A DNA stretch of 28,952 bases from a virus (lineage: Duplodnaviria; Caudoviricetes), in the IMG/VR virus record IMGVR_UViG_3300017754_002785, positions 1-28,952 of that record. One strand, 5' to 3'. The first letter of the stretch is position 1. Each line of letters opens with the position of its first letter. Shown in pieces: positions 2,552 through 15,191 of the stretch. Below the pieces are notes generated by a model, which was not told where the DNA came from, made no database searches, and saw nothing but the letters and a program-made list of their open reading frames with translations. Position numbers and translations under genes: made by a program.

Positions 2552-3622
2552 TTAGGATTTACGTTTCGAGAGTTGAGCTGCACGGAGGGCGATGAAGTCG
2601 TTGGCGCTTCCTGTTTGTTTGTATCGGCTTTCAATGTCCTTGAGCTGCCGGTCGAAGCGGTTTTCAGGACGCTCCGGGGCAGCCGCCGTGGAGGCGGGGG
2701 ACGAGGGAGGATTAAGCGTTACGCCCTTGGACTTACCGTCCATTGGCAGCTCGCGGCGCCCGTAGATGGAGTTGGCGGCGTGAGCCACCAGATACTCAAT
2801 CTGCGGGGCAATCTCAGGCACAAGACGCTTGGCCTGTTGCAGGCGGGGGTCATTGACCATCGCCTCATACCGCTTCCTCACATCGTTGTCTTCGCCATCC
2901 ATCCAAGACAGCTCGGTTTTGGCCAAGGTCTTGAACTGCTGTTCCATTCCCTGACGCTGTGCTCGGAGCTGGAGCTCCTTGTACTGCGCCGGGATGTATT
3001 TGGTCTGGCGACGACGGGCGTTTCGGAGCATCTCGCGCACCTGCACCTTGGTCCACTCCTTGCCGTCTTCCGCTGTGTAAACAACGTCGTTGGGGCCAAA
3101 GTCCTCCGCCTTGAAAAGGATGTCCTCTGCCGACTCGACGAAGCTATCCACCTCTTCCTTCTGTTTCTGAAGGTCTTCGACGGTAGCAATCGACTCGTAG
3201 GGGTTGTCCTCAACCTTGGCGTCAGGGAGTTGCTGCCGAGCCTGCACAATGGCAGACTCCAGCGCGGCTGCCTTCTCCTCGGCTAGCTTGCGCTTGGCCG
3301 TGAGCTCAGCAATCCGCTTGAGCAACCCGCTCTTGCCCTTTTGGGCAAGCTCAGCGATCTCCTCATCTGTGAGGTCCTCAATTTCCTTTGAAAGAACTTC
3401 CTTCTGGGGAGCGGCCTCGGCCTTGGGTTCGCCCTCTTGCGGGGGCTCCTTGGCTTCGGGCTCCTTCGGAGGAACCGATTCAGGCTCTTTGGGAGCAGCG
3501 GGGGGCTGCTTGCCAGTAAGCTTGGCAATACGGGAGGACAGGAAATCCTTGTCCGTCATTGGCTTGTTGGTTTCCACGGCAGGTTTAGCGTCCCCCGCGT
3601 CGGACGTTACGACTTCTGACAT
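2552..3622 (-). CDS. Capsid scaffolding protein
   Basis: 356 aa with an acidic, Pro-rich N-terminus, a coiled coil containing KRIAELTAKRK and a helical C-terminal tail. It lies between portal and MCP. Confidence 0.75.
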   Translation of the reverse strand: MSEVVTSDAGDAKPAVETNKPMTDKDFLSSRIAKLTGKQPPAAPKEPESVPPKEPEAKEPPQEGEPKAEAAPQKEVLSKEIEDLTDEEIAELAQKGKSGLLKRIAELTAKRKLAEEKAAALESAIVQARQQLPDAKVEDNPYESIATVEDLQKQKEEVDSFVESAEDILFKAEDFGPNDVVYTAEDGKEWTKVQVREMLRNARRRQTKYIPAQYKELQLRAQRQGMEQQFKTLAKTELSWMDGEDNDVRKRYEAMVNDPRLQQAKRLVPEIAPQIEYLVAHAANSIYGRRELPMDGKSKGVTLNPPSSPASTAAAPERPENRFDRQLKDIESRYKQTGSANDFIALRAAQLSKRKS

Positions 3623-8393: not shown

Positions 8394-8588
8394 TCACTTT
8401 CCTTGGCGTATCTCCAGCTTCCAGCACCAGAAGCCTATGGTGCACGACCAGTAGCCACCCCCCGTAAAGGAATACTGACCGTAATGGCGCTTGCCCGTAG
8501 ACACATCCGTCCAAGACGACGTAACTATCGCCTTGGTAATCCAAATGCCAAGGCTGGGCCTATTGCAGGGAAGCCAAGAGACTCTCAT
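8394..8588 (-). CDS. Small Trp-rich hypothetical protein between terS and terL
   Basis: 64 aa. Its ATG overlaps the terS stop as ATGA. Confidence 0.5.
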   Translation of the reverse strand: MRVSWLPCNRPSLGIWITKAIVTSSWTDVSTGKRHYGQYSFTGGGYWSCTIGFWCWKLEIRQGK

Positions 8589-9112
8589 ACACCCTCCACA
8601 GGTTTCGTCACCACCTCAATGCTGCTCTCCTTCAGCTTGGCCTTAGCCTCCTCAATAGCCTTCATCGCATCCTCCAAGCTAGGGGCACTACTCTTGTGCT
8701 CCACCGTCACCCTGTTCCCCTCCGTCGCCATAAAGAACTTGTCCGCATAGATGCCATAGCTCATCGCCAAATCACGTAAGTTGGTACGAGCCAACATCTT
8801 GTCGTCCTCAGCTAGCATCTTCATCTTCTCCTGCTGGAGCATTCTCGCGCCCTCAATCAGCTCCATTGCATCCTGTGCCACAATCTCCTTCCTCTTGTCT
8901 ATCAAGCCCTTATGCCGGGACCTAAGCCCCACCAGCGTGTACCAATCCACGTTCTCCTCACGCACAATGCTCTTCCAGCTCTTCCCCTCGGCCATCAGCT
9001 CCAACAACCTAGCCGCCCGCTCAGGCTGACGCGCCTCAATGCTACGGCCATTCTCCCCAGCAGCCACTATGGCCCTAGCCACTTCCTTCCTGATGGCAGC
9101 TCGTTCGCTCAT
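8585..9112 (-). CDS. terS: Terminase small subunit (putative)
   Basis: 175 aa located upstream of TerL. It has an HTH-like segment (LLELMAEGKSWKSIVRE) followed by long helices. Confidence 0.65.
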   Translation of the reverse strand: MSERAAIRKEVARAIVAAGENGRSIEARQPERAARLLELMAEGKSWKSIVREENVDWYTLVGLRSRHKGLIDKRKEIVAQDAMELIEGARMLQQEKMKMLAEDDKMLARTNLRDLAMSYGIYADKFFMATEGNRVTVEHKSSAPSLEDAMKAIEEAKAKLKESSIEVVTKPVEGV

Positions 9113-9117
9113 ACCCC

Positions 9118-9147
9118 CATATGGGGACTATTCCCCATACCTGTCAA
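9118..9147 (-). promoter_or_regulatory. Candidate terS promoter containing an operator-like palindrome
   Basis: TTGACA on the minus strand at 9142-9147. The palindrome ATGGGG-N6-CCCCAT (9121-9138) lies downstream of it. The -10 is weak. Confidence 0.4.
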
Positions 9148-9295
9148 TCCGGGACAGGCAGGCCCATAATAGGACTTTTTTAAAAAATCTTCGTTCTTCG
9201 TGTAACTTTCCACCCTTCTGCCCCGTCCCTGAATACCATTCAGTTACAGGAAGCGTTTGTAAAAAAGTTTAAAGGTCGGATTGACCCAATAGTTC

Positions 9296-9346
9296 TGGAA
9301 CCCACGGGCGAAGCCCGACCCCCTCCCCCCCCTGCTGAGTTCGCCG
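9296..9346. repeat. Inverted repeat, left copy (pairs with 13662-13713)
   Basis: TGGAACCCACGGGC-GAA-GCCCGA-C5-T-C8-TGCTGAGTTCGCCG. It is the reverse complement of 13662-13713 except for 2 loop bases, 1 substitution and 1 C in the run. Confidence 0.92.
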
Positions 9347-9560
9347 TTACCCCGGGTGACGCGAGCGAAGTAGGACGAGTTGTACAGGTGATTGGACGAC
9401 GGCTTGGCCGTGTTCTAGATTCGCCCGGGGTCTTTGAGCCGAGGCCCCTTCTGAGGGGCGCGTGCGATCCATCGGCTGGCTTGGCAGCGTTCTGATCCAA
9501 GGGCCTAGGGGCTGGCCCCTAGGCACATAGTTGAAGCCTAAATGCGTGCAACGGCACAAC

Positions 9561-9591
9561 AAAAAAGCCCTAGGGGGTGAGCCTAGGGCTT
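9561..9591 (-). terminator. Rho-independent terminator of the accessory cassette
   Basis: The minus strand reads AAGCCCTAGG-loop-CCTAGGGCTT-TTTT, about 30 nt after the last cassette gene. Confidence 0.75.
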
Positions 9592-9622
9592 GCGTGTGCG
9601 AGGGATGCGTTAGGGTGTCAAC

Positions 9623-9781
9623 CTATCTCCCGGGGTCCTCGTACCCCTTTTTGGGCTTGGGTCTGGTGGGCTTATCAGGCCCGCCGTAGAGGATGAGATA
9701 GAGCAGAACGCTACAGATGGCTAGCAGGGCTGCGAGAGCGCCGAGGGCGAAGTCGGCAAATCCGCCAAGCATATGCTTCAT
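9623..9781 (-). CDS. Small single-pass membrane protein
   Basis: 52 aa (MKHMLGGFADFALGALAALLAICSVLLYLILYGGPDKPTRPKPKK...). It has an ATGA overlap with the amidotransferase stop. Confidence 0.6.
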   Translation of the reverse strand: MKHMLGGFADFALGALAALLAICSVLLYLILYGGPDKPTRPKPKKGYEDPGR

Positions 9782-10590
9782 GATCCGAAGAGGTCCTGAT
9801 AGGACGCGGCGTTGTGGTGGGAGGGGGAGGAGTTGGCGTGCTCGATGGAGCCGTAGTATTCCTTGGCGGAGCGCCAGTTGGTGGACTTGGGCGCAATGTA
9901 TACCTTCTCCTTCTTGACGAAGGAGGAGATGGACAAGGGCCGGTGGGGCTTGCGGGTGGACCATTCAAGGGCGGTGAAGTCCTTGACGGGTGAGCAGTCG
10001 AGTGGCGTGGCGCAAGCTACGGCTTCCCTAGTGGTGCCGAAGGCGTAGCCGTAGCCCGGGATGCGGGCGGAGACTAGGCTGGCTTGGTCGTCCTTGACGA
10101 TGGTGAGGCGCTTGGCCTTGGCATCGAGGAGGGCGAAGGCGAAGTAGCCTTCGATGGAGGCAAGGCCTGCCGTGCCCTTGTCCTGCATGGCGCGGAGGAG
10201 AAGTTCCGAGTCGCAGGTGGTGGACGAGTTCTTGTAGTGGTCAGACTCGACGATGCCGTTGTGGACGAGAGCTTGCTCTACGTCCAGCATTGGATGCGTG
10301 TTGTCGAGGGACTTGCCACAAGTGGCCTTTCGCCCGTGAATGATGAGGGCGGAGCCATCGGAGGGCTCGTTGTAGCCCACTTGGTCGTGCCAGCCTTCCG
10401 ACCAGTCGGTGAGGCGATTGGTGAGGAGTGGGTTGGATGAGCGGATATGGGCGAGCTTGCCGGAGCGTGAAATCCACGCTGCGCCGAAGCCATCGCGTTC
10501 GCCAGTGCGCTCGAAATAGCGCCAAGCGTGGCGGATGATGGAGTTACGCTGGGAGGGCTTGTGGCCCGTGAGGAAGAGAAGCTTACACAT
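9778..10590 (-). CDS. Class II (Ntn) glutamine amidotransferase
   Basis: The start at 10590 gives MCKLL with the Cys2 nucleophile. Motifs RDGFG, HGRKAT, NTHP, HNG and CDSE are present. Confidence 0.9.
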   Translation of the reverse strand: MCKLLFLTGHKPSQRNSIIRHAWRYFERTGERDGFGAAWISRSGKLAHIRSSNPLLTNRLTDWSEGWHDQVGYNEPSDGSALIIHGRKATCGKSLDNTHPMLDVEQALVHNGIVESDHYKNSSTTCDSELLLRAMQDKGTAGLASIEGYFAFALLDAKAKRLTIVKDDQASLVSARIPGYGYAFGTTREAVACATPLDCSPVKDFTALEWSTRKPHRPLSISSFVKKEKVYIAPKSTNWRSAKEYYGSIEHANSSPSHHNAASYQDLFGS

Positions 10591-10606
10591 TGTAGTGATA
10601 GTAGGA

Positions 10607-11746
10607 TTATTCGCTGTCGGTGGTCGTGTCGGTAGCAGCAGTGGTGTATTGCGCTGGATTGAGTTCTCGATGGCGGGCTCGCCAGAATGCGAGGTCGTGC
10701 GCGGGCAGCGGAAGCTGCTCAAGGGTGGCGATACACGAGCCAGCCTTGGGGCCGCGAGACACAGCACGGATTAGTTCGACGAGTCGGAGCCAGCTAAGCA
10801 CCTTGGTGTAGTCTAGGGTGGCAGAGCCGCATCGAACTTCGATGGTCTTATGCGCAGTCCACGACAGCACGTTAACGGCGCGGTAGCGGTCGTGAGGGGA
10901 AACGCCCCACTTGCAGTAGGTGTTGTCTCGACGCGAGGCTGGCAGCAGTTCCATTAGGGCGTGTAGCCACTTGTCCATCACCTTTGCGCGGGCAATGACC
11001 TCTGAGTATGACAGGCTTCGTGCGTCGAGGTGTACGTGCAGCCCGCACGACTTGTTGACGCGCAGGCCAAGCGTTGCGAAGCGCTTGCACAGGTTGAACA
11101 GACGGGGTTCCGCAACTGCTCGGTCGAGCAGGACGCGAATCTCGTGGCCCTGTGCGTCGCCGGGAGGGCGAATTGATCCGTCACTTGCAACCCGTGTCCA
11201 TATCGGAAGTGCTTGGATCAGTTGCTTGCGCTCGATTAACCCGTAAGATTCGAACTCTAAGCCTACTGCGTGTTGGTAGTTGTACAGATCGCAGCTTGTA
11301 TTGCGGGACCATAGCGACGAGAACTGCTTGCCCGGGGCAAGCGGGATGCTCGACAGCAATTCGTACACGCGCTCTGTGAATGGCTTGCGCAGGGGGTCCG
11401 GTACGCTGTCATTGAAGCGGCGGACCCGATAGTTGCGTATGCTACTGCAATTGTTGGGTGCCATACAAAGTGTCTTTGGATTGGTGACCCTGCCGCGCAG
11501 TCGCCGGAATCGCTTGGGCGTGTTTTTGCGGAATAGGCAATCTGGCACGAAAACCATTTGCTGGTTCGCCTCTCGCAATGCAACGGGATACGAACTTGTG
11601 TCCATTAGGTCTGCAATGTAGTTGGCGGCGCATATGCCGGTGTGCTCGTCGGCTGGAAGGCCCGAGGTAGTGGACCAAACAAGTCCAGAGTGCTGGATAA
11701 CGTTGTCGAGGTGGTGACGGATGGAATACCAAGTGATGGTTTTCAT
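10607..11746 (-). CDS. Putative amidoligase (COOH-NH2 ligase, Amidoligase_2-like)
   Basis: Motifs VGLEFE, SDGSI, GHEI, VNKSCGLHVH, RYRAVN and TIEVR are present. It is adjacent to a class II GATase. Confidence 0.88.
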   Translation of the reverse strand: MKTITWYSIRHHLDNVIQHSGLVWSTTSGLPADEHTGICAANYIADLMDTSSYPVALREANQQMVFVPDCLFRKNTPKRFRRLRGRVTNPKTLCMAPNNCSSIRNYRVRRFNDSVPDPLRKPFTERVYELLSSIPLAPGKQFSSLWSRNTSCDLYNYQHAVGLEFESYGLIERKQLIQALPIWTRVASDGSIRPPGDAQGHEIRVLLDRAVAEPRLFNLCKRFATLGLRVNKSCGLHVHLDARSLSYSEVIARAKVMDKWLHALMELLPASRRDNTYCKWGVSPHDRYRAVNVLSWTAHKTIEVRCGSATLDYTKVLSWLRLVELIRAVSRGPKAGSCIATLEQLPLPAHDLAFWRARHRELNPAQYTTAATDTTTDSE

Positions 11747-11764
11747 AGGTAGGGTGATAGTAGG

Positions 11765-12025
11765 TTAGGCGCCGATGCAGTCGTTGTCGTTGGGATTGGC
11801 GAGGCAGATGGCGTCCCAAGTGCTCTCTTTCTTCTTCAAGTGGGCGCGCATCAAGTCGCACAGCTTGGTGTAGGTCGCGTAGGCGCCAGCCTCGTCGATG
11901 GTTTCGATGGCGTTGGAGCCGAGCCCGTAGGCGAGGCGGAACAGCGCCCGCTGGGCGTTGTCGTATTCCTTGTAGGCGTTGTAGTTGGCGCGCTCGGTGG
12001 CGCTCAGCTTGTACTTAGCTTTCAT
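11765..12025 (-). CDS. Hypothetical protein
   Basis: 86 aa starting MKAKYKLSATER. It has an A/C-rich leader and codon usage consistent with its neighbours. Confidence 0.65.
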   Translation of the reverse strand: MKAKYKLSATERANYNAYKEYDNAQRALFRLAYGLGSNAIETIDEAGAYATYTKLCDLMRAHLKKKESTWDAICLANPNDNDCIGA

Positions 12026-12053
12026 TGTCGTGTGTCGCGTAGTCACGCGCCAG

Positions 12054-12332
12054 TCAGGCGCGGCCCAGAGCCGGGCGAGCAACCCCCGAAGAGGGGGAAA
12101 AGAAGAAGGTGTAGGTGCACACATCGGCAATCTGCCGGTTGTGCTGCGAACGGGCGAGGAACTGCTCGCTTACGTCGATGAGCTCGGAGGCGTCGTGGCC
12201 CCATTTGGCGAGGAAGTCGTCGCACTCTCGGCACTCGTGGTCGGACAGGTCGCCCTGCTCGCCATAGGCGATGTAGCACGCCCAGTAGGCGGGTAGTTCG
12301 TACTTGCGGGTGTTACGCAATGTGAGCTTCAT
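12054..12332 (-). CDS. Hypothetical early protein (DUF6926-like)
   Basis: The pattern YELPAYWACYIAYGEQGDLSDHE..DDFL is recalled from small phage early proteins. The family name is from memory and unverified. Confidence 0.6.
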   Translation of the reverse strand: MKLTLRNTRKYELPAYWACYIAYGEQGDLSDHECRECDDFLAKWGHDASELIDVSEQFLARSQHNRQIADVCTYTFFFSPSSGVARPALGRA

Positions 12333-12390
12333 ATGTGGAAGAGTCGTATGGGGGCGATACCCCATTAGGAGGTGATAGTAAGTACGAGGG

Positions 12391-12819
12391 TTAGTTCTTG
12401 CGGAAACCATACGAGAGGAGGGTCTTGTAGAACTTCCGAGCGCTTTCGATGGACAGCTCGACCTCAACGTCCTCGGAGTTGAAACGAACGGTGGTGACGG
12501 TGGCCGTGTCTTCGCGATGATTGATCGCGAAGATGTGGCGGACGTAACCCTTTCCGCGAATGTATTGCCCTAGCGTGTGCGTTTCCTCAAAGGCCTCGTC
12601 GTCGTAATCGCTCCGCGACCGCGTATCGCGCCGGTCGTTGGAAGCCGACTTATCCATGATGCTCGACGCGCTGTGCCTATCGGCCTCGTCGTTCTTGCGG
12701 TCACGAATGTTGTTACGCGAACGAATAGAATCAAAATCCATACTTACGTCGGGCGCCTCGGAATCGGGCGCCGTGGTGTTTGTGGTAGCTGTGGAGGACT
12801 GGGTGAGCTTGTGGGTCAT
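12391..12819 (-). CDS. Hypothetical protein, first gene of the accessory cassette
   Basis: 142 aa with a low-complexity, charged N-half and a globular C-half. It starts 7 nt from the long hairpin. Confidence 0.7.
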   Translation of the reverse strand: MTHKLTQSSTATTNTTAPDSEAPDVSMDFDSIRSRNNIRDRKNDEADRHSASSIMDKSASNDRRDTRSRSDYDDEAFEETHTLGQYIRGKGYVRHIFAINHREDTATVTTVRFNSEDVEVELSIESARKFYKTLLSYGFRKN

Positions 12820-12826
12820 ACGAGCC

Positions 12827-12932
12827 CCCGGAACACACAGACGGGGCCCTAAAGCAATTCGTAGTTTTACGTGGCGCGCTTGCGCGCTACGTAATAACTA
12901 TGAGTTGCTTTGGGGTGGATGTGTGTTTCGGG
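12827..12932 (+). other. Long strand-specific imperfect hairpin (about 46 bp)
   Basis: Three stacked stems of 13, 21 and about 12 bp with six G-T wobbles and no A-C mismatches on the + strand. It has one T bulge and one internal loop. Confidence 0.85.
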
Positions 12933-13315
12933 TATGCAGGGGCCGGATGACCCACAAGCGATCCGCGTCCCCTCAGATACCACTTACCACGGTGCCCGAT
13001 TCCTGCCCGACCTGCTAGCCCCTGCTCGGCTACGAGCGAAGCTCCAGCCGAGATATTGAATTGACAGACCCCTTGAGGGGGCTGTCTTTACGGGGTGACC
13101 CTAAAGACTGCGGAGGGCGGTTGGGGCGAGGGGCCCCAATCCGGTCCCGGAGCCGTACTGGAGTTGCGCGTGAGCCGCAGCGAACGGCAGCAGGGGGGCG
13201 TCGCGGGGGGCTGCAAGCCCCCTGCGTCTCCGCCCATTTTCTGCGGCCCGCGTGAGCGGGACGCTTGCACACCGTCGCGGAGCCCCAAAGAATGCGGGAT
13301 GTGATAGTATTAGGG

Positions 13316-13597
13316 ATGCGTAACAAGCTTGCTGGCAAGTATACGGGGAAGAGCGAGAGCAGTCGTTACTATGCTACGAACCCGGAGGCGAGGCGTAGGA
13401 AGAACGCCTACAATAAGCGATATCACGCGACGGAGGAGAGGAAGGAATACCGGGCGGAATTGAACGCTGCGAACCGCAGGATGGGCAGCGAGGGCGACGG
13501 GAAGGACGCTAGTCACACGAGGAGCGGGCGTATTGTCCTGGAGCGGGCGACCAGTAACCGGGCAAGGAACGGCAATGGTGGACGACGGCTGTTGTAG
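13316..13597 (+). CDS. Small basic phage protein, possibly degenerate HNH-like
   Basis: 93 aa, Arg/Lys-rich, containing GDGKDASHTRSGRIVLERATSNRARNG. An extended -10 (TGaTAGTAT) ends 5 nt before the ATG, which suggests a leaderless mRNA. Confidence 0.7.
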   Translation: MRNKLAGKYTGKSESSRYYATNPEARRRKNAYNKRYHATEERKEYRAELNAANRRMGSEGDGKDASHTRSGRIVLERATSNRARNGNGGRRLL

Positions 13598-13661
13598 GCG
13601 ACGGTCGGGAACGGGGCCGCAGCGCGGCCCGGTTCGGGGGTTTGGGCGGGGTAGGACGGGG

Positions 13662-13713
13662 CGGCGAACTCGGCAGGGGGGGGGAGGGGGTCGGGCTGAG
13701 CCCGTGGGTTCCA
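13662..13713. repeat. Inverted repeat, right copy (pairs with 9296-9346)
   Basis: CGGCGAACTCGGCA-G9-A-G5-TCGGGC-TGA-GCCCGTGGGTTCCA. Confidence 0.92.
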
Positions 13714-13804
13714 CAATAAACGGTCACAACCCTATGATAGTGAATATCATAATTTCGGTCTGTGCTTTCCGCGCAGAAAAACACCCCGGCGGGATCAACT
13801 TTGC

Positions 13805-13832
13805 TTGACAGACGAAGGTTGCGTGTTACGGT
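13805..13832 (+). promoter_or_regulatory. Sigma70-type promoter of the replication module
   Basis: TTGACA at 13805-13810, a 16-nt spacer and an extended -10 TG-t-TACGGT at 13824-13832. Confidence 0.6.
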
Positions 13833-13887
13833 GAGTATCGCCAGTCGTTCTATGTGTTAATCGTATGGGAGTGTCGCCCTGTACGGT

Positions 13888-13928
13888 GGAACCCACCTCA
13901 CGCTTAGCGGGGGTGGGTTTTCCGTTTC
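13888..13928 (+). terminator. Terminator/attenuator-like hairpin
   Basis: GAACCCACCTC..GGGGTGGGTTT stem followed by TCCGTTTC, about 55 nt downstream of the promoter. Confidence 0.5.
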
Positions 13929-13931
13929 TTA

Positions 13932-14268
13932 GGTTAGAAGGGTAGATGGTCTGGCTCCGACCTGTGCAAGGCGGTTCTTGGGCCTACTGGCGGGGAGCCT
14001 GACGAATTTACCAACTCCCCTTAATGTTGGCTCCTTTGGGAGTGAACGTGCCGAGAACCACGGGCAATGGCCTACCAGCGTGGCGGCAGCACCCGGAAAC
14101 CTCGTCTCTCGGCAGACAGCGTTCTAGTGGTTCATCCAGCAATGGGTGAACTCTGCCCCCGTGTTCCTGCATCAGCACCAGCGTCCTATAGGGAGCTAAA
14201 GTGTGATGTAAGTCGATGAATGGGAGAGCGAAACAAATCTCCTAAAGAAAAAGCTCGTAGACCCTAAC
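13932..14268 (+). ncRNA. Candidate large structured non-coding element (RNA or ssDNA origin)
   Basis: The interval contains no ORF of 60 aa or more. It has at least 7 stems, several with G-U pairs on the + strand, and a GCAA tetraloop at 14139-14142. Confidence 0.55.
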
Positions 14269-14290
14269 AAAAAGTGATTGGGTGGTGGGG

Positions 14291-14563
14291 ATGAAAGACA
14301 ACACATTGAACCTCACCTGTGAAGATCAACTTCAGCTTGCTGTGAAGTTTATGGCGTGTGAATACGCCATTGACGGGATGCTGCGGCATTTCCCGGCTCC
14401 TGAGTGCAAGGAGCAGGAGCACGCTGTGAATTGGGCCAAGGACACGCTTGGCTGGCTGAAGGAGTGCCGTGAGGCGGCTGGGCTGCCTTACGACTACAAG
14501 GACATCACCGAATTTTCCCTCCCGTTCTTGGGGGGCAATGACCAAACCAACAACCAAAACTAA
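14291..14563 (+). CDS. Hypothetical protein
   Basis: 90 aa. It is the first ORF of the + strand module and ends 4 nt before the SSB-like gene. Confidence 0.65.
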   Translation: MKDNTLNLTCEDQLQLAVKFMACEYAIDGMLRHFPAPECKEQEHAVNWAKDTLGWLKECREAAGLPYDYKDITEFSLPFLGGNDQTNNQN

Positions 14564-14567
14564 CCAT

Positions 14568-15191
14568 ATGCCAATCGTAAAAGCTGAGAGTAAGGGTATT
14601 GATCCGGTGCCTGCTGGTGTCCATCAGGCCGTTTGCTATGCCGTCATTGATCTGGGGACGCAGGACCCGGGCAACCCGCAATTCCGGCCCAGCCGGAAGG
14701 TGATGCTGATGTGGGAGCTGCCCCACGAAACCATCAGCACGCCGGATGGGGTGAAGCCGCGCATCATCTCGTCTGAGTACACGATGTCCATCGGCAAGAA
14801 GGCTACGCTGCGTGGCGTGCTGGAGAGCTGGCGTGGGCGTCCGTTCACGGCGGATGAGCTGAATGCGTTCGACCTGAAGAACATCCTTGGGGCGAATTGC
14901 CAGCTCAACGTGGTACACAAGCCGGGGAAGGCCGATCCCAGCCGCGTGTATGCCCGCATTCAGGGCGTGGTGCCGCTGGTGAAGGGGATGGCCCCGCTGA
15001 AGCCGGTGAGCGATGTCATCCTGTACGACATCCCTGAGAATGGTCCCATCACGCTGCCCAAGGCGCTGCCTGAGTGGATTGGGGCGAAGATCACGGCCTC
15101 GGATGAGTACAAGCAGCGCACCGGGGGCGGCATCACGGAAGCCACTACGGAGAGTGGTGGAAATGGTGTTGACGAAGACATACCCTTCTGA
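14568..15191 (+). CDS. Phage single-stranded DNA-binding / replication protein (NGO0469-like)
   Basis: Motifs GVHQAVCYAVIDLGTQ, KATLRGVLESWRGRPF and FDLKNILGANCQLNV, plus an acidic SSB-type tail DEDIPF. Confidence 0.75.
   Translation: MPIVKAESKGIDPVPAGVHQAVCYAVIDLGTQDPGNPQFRPSRKVMLMWELPHETISTPDGVKPRIISSEYTMSIGKKATLRGVLESWRGRPFTADELNAFDLKNILGANCQLNVVHKPGKADPSRVYARIQGVVPLVKGMAPLKPVSDVILYDIPENGPITLPKALPEWIGAKITASDEYKQRTGGGITEATTESGGNGVDEDIPF

Follow-up and report, generated by a model that had tools for sequence, protein, structure and literature searches.

A long imperfect hairpin, hereafter the rod, covers the start of the first gene of a minus-strand gene cassette in the genome of a tailed phage. 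It is a real, conserved and strand-specific fold-back element, larger than the preliminary description of this DNA made it, and in each relative that carries one its second arm copies that phage's own first gene. We put at roughly 50% the probability that the rod is an Frpo-like fold-back promoter, one that would exist only when the + strand is single-stranded.

Genomic context of the cassette

The window, as we call the whole stretch of DNA analyzed, is a 28,952-base phage record with an estimated completeness of 79%. It encodes an SU10-type major capsid protein, a terminase, DnaB, ThyX, and a PD-(D/E)XK nuclease, and its nearest annotated record is phage C75C1 (capsid 57%, terminase 44%). 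The 24 listed sequencing runs in which the region is present are freshwater or lake metagenomes, none of them RNA, and a host search with the capsid protein in genome contigs confirmed none of 108 candidates.

The cassette lies between a putative terS (8585–9112, minus strand; named by position and gene order) and replication genes on the + strand. Its first gene (12391–12819, minus strand, ATG at 12819) encodes 142 aa and belongs to no Pfam or PHROG family; twelve homologous proteins share 52–99% identity with its product, and the best ESM Atlas score (0.85) fell on chromo-shadow clusters, which we treat as a lead only. The rest of the cassette (9778–12332, minus strand) comprises a DUF6926-like gene (12054–12332; below the cut-off), an 86-aa gene for which no family could be named (11765–12025), an amidoligase gene (10607–11746), and a class II glutamine amidotransferase gene whose ORF ends at 9778. 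On the other side of the rod, a divergent phrog_6437 gene (13319–13597, within the part 13302–13597) is encoded on the + strand.

Two further features of this neighborhood were recorded in passing. A short palindrome (12036–12049) immediately precedes the 86-aa gene, and a similar sequence precedes the amidoligase gene in three relatives (L023, L024, L182). Farther downstream on the + strand side, an apparently non-coding block (13890–14190), preceded by a terminator-like hairpin (13886–13923) and devoid of Rfam matches, is 75–85% conserved in relatives whose neighboring genes are more divergent (L098, L121, L123).

Families of phage RNA polymerase, DNA polymerase, primase, relaxase, HUH Rep, and reverse transcriptase were not recognized in 39 window and locus proteins or in 75 of 77 long ORFs from three relatives, the records scanned being 79–100% complete. 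A search with PF00940 matched none of five records, and its control likewise matched nowhere. Virion proteins of 1.2 kaa carry no assigned family, and a PDB sequence search with one of 1235 aa gave no significant match.

A 244-nt rod spans the start of the first cassette gene

Self-BLAST and folding delimit the full imperfect hairpin to 12760–13003 on the + strand, with 94 Watson-Crick pairs, 7 G.T pairs, no A.C, and 12 other mismatches; a basal helix (12747–12754/13004–13011) extends it to 12747–13011. The preliminary description had recognized a 106-nt hairpin (12827–12932), better folded on the template strand and separated by 7 nt from the start of the adjacent minus-strand gene. That hairpin exists, with its three stems as placed (13 + 21 + 12 = 46 bp) around a CTTG loop (12879–12882) and the ATG at the distance given, and it is the tip of the 244-nt rod; it is also interrupted by a bulge of one base and by an internal loop that holds a G.A mismatch. 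Its six G.T pairs, all on the + strand and accompanied by no A.C, were likewise correctly reported, and taken alone they are weak evidence of a strand preference (binomial p 0.03).

The rod takes in the start codon and the first 20 codons of the 142-aa gene. Its left arm (12760–12878) is the template for the leader and these 20 codons and bears single bulged A residues after G. The right arm (12883–13003) is a degenerate, frameshifted inverted copy of the same gene start, with a copied ATG at 12947, that falls out of frame after a few codons; in the folded form it would serve as the non-template strand. An 8-nt bulge in this arm (12933–12940) may act as a pre-opened bubble.

Compared with 200 shuffles, the real sequence of the 106-nt hairpin folded better than all of them on both strands, and better on the + strand (z −10.9 against −7.2 for DNA folding and −14.1 against −8.5 for RNA folding). 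For the rod as a whole, the RNA fold energy was −174 kcal/mol on the + strand and −140 kcal/mol on the minus strand. Since contigs spanned the rod in all four sequencing runs examined, and self-inverted matches of at least 100 nt occurred in just 2 of 104 control loci (923 kb), both at contig ends, the rod is not an assembly artefact.

The 300 nt adjoining the rod are strongly structured as well. This cluster of short hairpins (13012–13290, + strand) holds a GCGAAGC motif (13036–13042) and a GC-rich hairpin (13194–13227) whose motif recurs in seven IMG/VR contigs, every one of them rod-bearing. A DNA pattern built from the rod matched four contigs, all of them among the sequences compared here, and against 50,697 phage records the rod had no match and the adjacent spacer chance matches only.

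Rods recur in relatives and copy each phage's own first gene

Queries with the first gene, the amidoligase, terS, and the flanking phrog_6437 gene yielded 183 loci, many of them redundant. Among relatives with a terS of at least 70% identity the content of the cassette varies while its orientation is constant. Five relatives share the rod type of the window (W-type: L013, L019, L014, L179, L181), and further rods occupy the same place in L171/L172/L176, L180, L015/L175, L121, and L120, with lengths of about 200–650 nt overall. In each case the right arm copies that phage's own first gene. The copy embraces a whole 62-aa gene in L176, and in L180 it takes in a complete 58-aa gene and runs into the beginning of the one after it. 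L171, L172, and L176, whose first gene differs from that of the window, share the window's tip (12827–12932) and not its outer arms. Rods are not universal, because six cassette-bearing relatives that were folded or scanned (L024, L182, L178, L098, L122, L123) have only clusters of shorter hairpins.

Several of these loci carry peculiarities of their own. The 62- and 58-aa first genes, which lie entirely within the rods of L176 (3521–3709) and L180 (393–569), resemble each other and, by eye, small DNA-binding proteins; neither has a PHROG match. In L186 (16682–18779), L098, L120, L122, and L123, an AAA ATPase gene and a gene of about 460 aa (phrog_33218 in L186) replace the amidoligase cassette, with orientation and skew unchanged. 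At the rod position L098 has a very G-rich repeat tract on the + strand (~3050–3350, in window orientation from terS) that could form G-quadruplexes. The relative G003 encodes a family 1/4 glycosyltransferase and a PAPS reductase-like protein amid its structural genes (L186 5591–6625, L185 8330–9127).

Rod identity to the window is 93–97% in four W-type relatives. In the three more distant ones (L014, L179, L181) the rod is 93–96% identical, against 62–85% for the rest of the gene and 53–77% for the spacer; L019 is ~97% identical throughout, and its rod is not set off from the flanks. Across the six W-type sequences, 98.8% of alignment cells pair. Four of 100 pairs have changed on both sides, a count reached by 9 of 500 shuffles, and in all six pairs that have changed on one side only, the exchange is between Watson-Crick and G.T; one basal pair is broken in three relatives. 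These compensatory changes, together with the mismatch asymmetry described next, support the view that the structure has been selected on the + strand, which is the template of the gene.

Mismatch classes favor the template strand

Of the possible mismatches, G.T, G.A, T.T, and G.G are the more stable classes, and every mismatch of these classes on the + strand is matched by its weaker counterpart on the minus strand. We pooled counts over six rod types using a strand-neutral aligner, leaving out L172 because it is close to L176. On the + strand, G.T exceeded A.C by 31 to 7 (p 1e-3 against rod composition) and G.A exceeded C.T by 46 to 8 (p 8e-7), p-values that are overstated because the six types partly share ancestry; T.T outnumbered A.A by 25 to 3, and G.G outnumbered C.C by 10 to 2. 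The bias had the same direction in all six types. In the window rod alone, 18 mismatches belong to classes more stable on the + strand and one to the opposite classes (p 8e-5), while in the excluded L172 the ratio of G.T to A.C is 6 to 6 by BLAST and 6 to 2 by the arm aligner. Single-base bulges in the left arms, here with L172 included, are A in 25 of 41 cases; these A bulges usually follow a G, and many of them lie two pairs away from a mismatch. The preliminary description had suggested homologous leaders as the place to seek covariation and a G-T bias; both are present and bear out its claim that folding prefers the template strand.

This asymmetry weighs on one competing explanation, namely a translational lock in which the leader of the minus-strand mRNA covers the start codon by folding back, the promoter being an upstream one in duplex DNA. 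The minus strand does still fold well (RNA z −8.5), and a message started upstream of the rod would have its ATG buried: the probability that the ATG is unpaired is 0.23 in a read-through message versus 0.75 in a leaderless one. However, most mismatches on the minus strand are of weak types (A.C, C.U, A.A, C.C), and pairs on that strand are broken by the one-sided changes observed. A minus-strand sigma-70 consensus that could serve as the upstream promoter is missing from all 14 spacers inspected, an absence that does not discriminate between readings because six of these spacers are rod-less and lack it too. We judge such a lock very unlikely.

Structural signs favor single-stranded DNA over RNA

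Strand preference by itself would suit a + strand RNA as well as + strand DNA, given that G.U, G.A, and U.U are also tolerated in RNA. The preliminary description had named a + strand antisense RNA as its alternative, and an antisense or otherwise structured non-coding RNA controlling the first gene would be compatible with the lower + strand fold energy, with the G.U-type changes, with the structured 300 nt next to the rod, and with the window tip, whose G-CUUG-C loop we take to be a stable RNA tetraloop. Other observations weaken this explanation. An antisense arm fully paired to its own sense copy would presumably be inert unless processed, G.A mismatches are more frequent than G.T (46 versus 31), no Rfam match was found up to an E-value of 5 in 8500–15000, and no + strand promoter consensus occurs between 9170 and 13302.

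The hairpin tips speak against RNA, too. Tips or tip branches of other rods read C-GGA-G (L171, L176) or C-GAA-G (L180), and GCGNAGC motifs favor the + strand both on the rod side (23 versus 8 in 14 dereplicated 1-kb stretches) and upstream of terS (40 versus 9 in 39 stretches), some of these matches lacking a longer stem; the bias thus reaches the far border, 3.5 kb off. In the flanks, the + and minus strand counts are 22 versus 47 and 31 versus 41. Within the window alone, C-GNA-G hairpins give a small signal (5 versus 1 in the cassette; 14 versus 10 genome-wide). According to the available text of PMC13037366, mini-hairpins of the GCGNAGC type have a far higher stability as DNA than as RNA, and they occur at the G4 origin, at RSF1010 ssiA, and in N4 promoters. 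Because of the GNA triloop tips and the GCGNAGC strand bias, we consider it likely that the element acts in single-stranded + DNA rather than in RNA, and an RNA that forms the rod correspondingly unlikely.

A skewed + strand runs from a conserved border to the rod

The DNA-type signs coincide with a wider asymmetry. When both strands were folded as DNA in 18 segments across 9101–13750, the + strand did better in 16 of them, a bias absent elsewhere, and the G+T skew turns positive at a C-tract (9318–9333). This tract and a GACCCAA motif form a conserved left border upstream of terS (9283–9333, + strand) that is probably a genome end or an origin. Among near relatives 24 of 27 have the C-tract, as do 23 of 24 far ones (47 of 51 dereplicated, C75C1 included); it is a candidate packaging or origin signal. 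Positive skew extends for ~3.5 kb where the cassette points to terS and for ~0.5 kb in the far group, whose genes upstream of terS are reversed in the eight loci inspected. At fourfold sites, the A+C share on the coding strand of the window cassette is 306/506 (0.60) versus 1226/2576 (0.48) in structural genes on the same strand, and in relatives it is 0.64–0.75 versus 0.25–0.45, with the same direction in 10 of 10. In the window this skew arises from A versus G (C versus T, p 0.28), and it could alternatively stem from the origin of the genes or from mRNA selection; the available portion of PMC13478746 gives no account of a comparable coding-strand skew. All of this would be consistent with a + strand that is single-stranded from the C-tract through the cassette.

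There are hints that the genome ends near 9340. Two distant capsid relatives, LUZ24 and phiM5, have annotated terminal repeats within ~1 kb upstream of their terminase genes, and a 12-mer located 63 nt from the LUZ24 right end, chosen after the fact, recurs in 14 of 56 near loci, a count that includes redundant ones, where it stands ~45 nt to the left of the C-tract; the window has only a 7-base core of it. An end at this place would put the cassette at the end of the genome with the 5′ terminus of its template strand outermost, the geometry described for plasmid leading regions in the available parts of PMC11541004, PMC9849209, and PMC12672017. An origin at the C-tract would explain the skew equally well. 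Contig ends were considered as markers of a fixed genome end and are scattered upstream of terS. Contig depth over cassette and flanks (~51–56 versus 26–38 in run X1; 19–26 versus 18–27 in run X2) showed no dip over the cassette in four runs, and it is uninformative on single-strandedness or a terminal repeat because strains co-occur and library types are unknown.

A 91% inverted copy of the left border (9293–9346) lies at 13662–13716 on the minus strand, in a 120-nt strain-specific stretch (13598–13719), in whose place contigs from runs X1, X2, and X4 have 16 nt. Terminal inverted repeats of a transposon or an invertible segment were rejected as an explanation, the right copy being missing in close strains and no inverted cassette occurring among the mapped loci. 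Inverted copying thus happens in this region, as it would if fold-back copying close to a genome end had left the rod behind as a neutral relic; yet a neutral sequence would show neither the conservation above the flanks nor the compensatory changes and the skew among mismatch classes. We regard a relic, jointly with the N4-type hairpin discussed below, as highly improbable.

The folded arm holds a candidate extended −10 box

In agreement with the preliminary description, which saw no obvious canonical −35/−10 boxes, the rod arms contain no correctly spaced pair; sigma-54, Bacteroidetes-type, and spaced −35/−10 readings of the arms were also tried by eye and did not fit. What recurs is a candidate extended −10 element. 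With the rods aligned on the ATG, TG-n-TA is present in the folded arm of 10 of 12, versus 4 of 12 for the non-template strand of the duplex, and its hexamer ends 7–8 nt ahead of the ATG, counted in template register. The box is nearer to the consensus in the folded arm than in the duplex in 9 of 12 rods, its A being found solely in the arm in seven rods and its final T in two; a full TAnnnT is present in 2 of 12 arms. The second hexamer position is never Watson-Crick paired in W-type rods, and a bulge or internal loop separates box and ATG in all rod types aligned. The window itself has TG-n-TT (12924–12932, + strand), a putative promoter element in which the conserved −11 A is replaced by T, as in L001 and L003; G stands there in L002 and L019, the latter carrying the −11 A on the duplex strand instead. 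For the window and L019, the −10 sequences therefore count against a promoter. Such a promoter layout does occur in the phage: the divergent gene (ATG at 13319) is preceded, at a distance of 5 nt, by an ordinary TG-n-TAnnnT box.

These features suggest how a fold-back promoter might operate. Once folded, the rod would offer the polymerase a non-template arm in which an extended −10-like box is combined with a mismatched melting position and a bulged start site, followed by 60–330 bp of downstream duplex. Host RNA polymerase could then start at or near the ATG, producing a leaderless message whose ATG would stay mostly unpaired, unlike that of a read-through message, and proceed through the cassette to the border on the terS side; the transcript may additionally prime the complementary strand. 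The regular bulges and mismatches would prevent extrusion or deletion of the palindrome in duplex DNA. The single-stranded DNA could come from a virion end that is single-stranded, from asymmetric entry, from resection by the host, or from a phase of lagging-strand or rolling-circle synthesis that the phage DnaB drives. The preliminary description had also allowed for transcription or priming from extruded duplex DNA, which is unlikely because perfect runs in the rod are at most 13 bp long.

A rod that folds in single-stranded + DNA need not be a promoter. If it served instead to prime synthesis, to block replication, to shield the DNA from nucleases, or to signal packaging, it would account equally well for the strand and DNA-type evidence, and it would sit well with a phage that has DnaB and no recognized primase or polymerase, with a skew flip at the C-tract that resembles an origin, and with a −10 that is weak and, in the window, without its A. 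A plasmid ssDNA stem-loop can, moreover, stall complementary synthesis, as described in the part of 10.64898/2026.01.09.698686 available to us. Such a role leaves unexplained why every rod is in register with the ATG of the first gene, even though that gene differs, and why TG-n-TA lies 7–8 nt upstream with a bulge in between; we deem it unlikely as the sole function. The same source credits plasmid ssDNA promoters with the ability to prime or stall synthesis of the complementary strand as well, so the two kinds of role are not mutually exclusive.

Comparison with known systems

In its presumed mode of action the rod is most like the Frpo/ssi (ssp) promoters, which the available sections of PMC9849209, PMC12672017, and PMC11541004 place in the leading regions of F, ColIb-P9, and pESBL. 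The preliminary description had called the hairpin Frpo/ssi-like, and the likeness holds in several respects: a long imperfect stem-loop, whose preferred folding strand is the one that templates the genes downstream; a position upstream of a variable cassette pointing to a fixed border; and promoter elements that in most relatives are better when folded, with no duplex promoter consensus. It does not extend to membership, because the rod has no sequence similarity to plasmids and no spaced −35/−10 pair; in a blastn search of rod and adjacent spacer against 72,556 plasmids, only chance matches of 21–39 nt appeared (E 0.2 or higher). The rod further differs in that its stem spans the start codon and up to a whole gene, that its second arm copies whichever gene comes first, and that its carrier is a tailed phage with no recognized relaxase.

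The early promoters of phage N4, also invoked at the outset, are template-strand DNA hairpins with GNA loops (described in the available text of PMC4496689 and PMC13037366), and GGA or GAA triloops closed by C-G occur at the tips of L171, L176, and L180. The comparison nevertheless fails on size, with a rod stem of ~100–280 bp against 5 bp in N4, and on the virion RNA polymerase that N4 promoters require, in the account of PMC4496689: no phage RNA polymerase is recognizable among the 39 window and locus proteins or the 75 from three relatives. The window tip is CTTG and lies ~60 nt from the ATG, whereas the N4 triloop is centered ~11 nt upstream of +1, and the perfect runs of the rod are probably too short for extrusion by supercoiling.

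Single-strand origins such as the G4 origin and RSF1010 ssiA share with the rod region strand-specific mini-hairpins of the GCGNAGC type beside a larger stem-loop (PMC13037366, available text). They are primase sites of ssDNA phages and plasmids, unlike the rod, which is tied to a start codon in a phage with no recognized primase. Retron-like reverse-transcribed DNA was dismissed, as the scanned proteins, from incomplete records, include no reverse transcriptase family.

C75C1 (OQ984151) and LUZ24-like podoviruses resemble the window in the SU10-type capsid protein, the terminase, an amidoligase near terS, and, in C75C1, the C-tract upstream of terS. In C75C1, however, the amidoligase region is directed away from terS, and there is neither a long inverted repeat nor a G+T skew of this sign; a long inverted repeat is absent from Venkman, phiM5, and the LUZ24 right end as well. 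We found no paper on C75C1.

Implications for tailed phages

Single-stranded promoters read by host RNA polymerase have been described for conjugative plasmids (PMC9849209, PMC12672017, and PMC11541004, as far as available), and a literature search of titles and abstracts, with most subscription papers outside its scope, returned nothing on ssDNA promoters or long single-stranded ends in tailed phages. More tentatively, and with less than even odds in our estimation, the whole clade may possess a conjugation-like leading region, in which ~4 kb at the first-entering end would be delivered or exposed as a single + strand, 5′ first, and early genes would be driven by a fold-back promoter; the second strand of that promoter, a copy of the first gene in inverted orientation, would be rebuilt whenever that gene is replaced. 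The rod is short and can be tested in vitro without a host. If the fold-back promoter is real, a tailed dsDNA phage would express an early cassette from single-stranded DNA, which may bear on what such phages can do before or during attack by defenses that target dsDNA.
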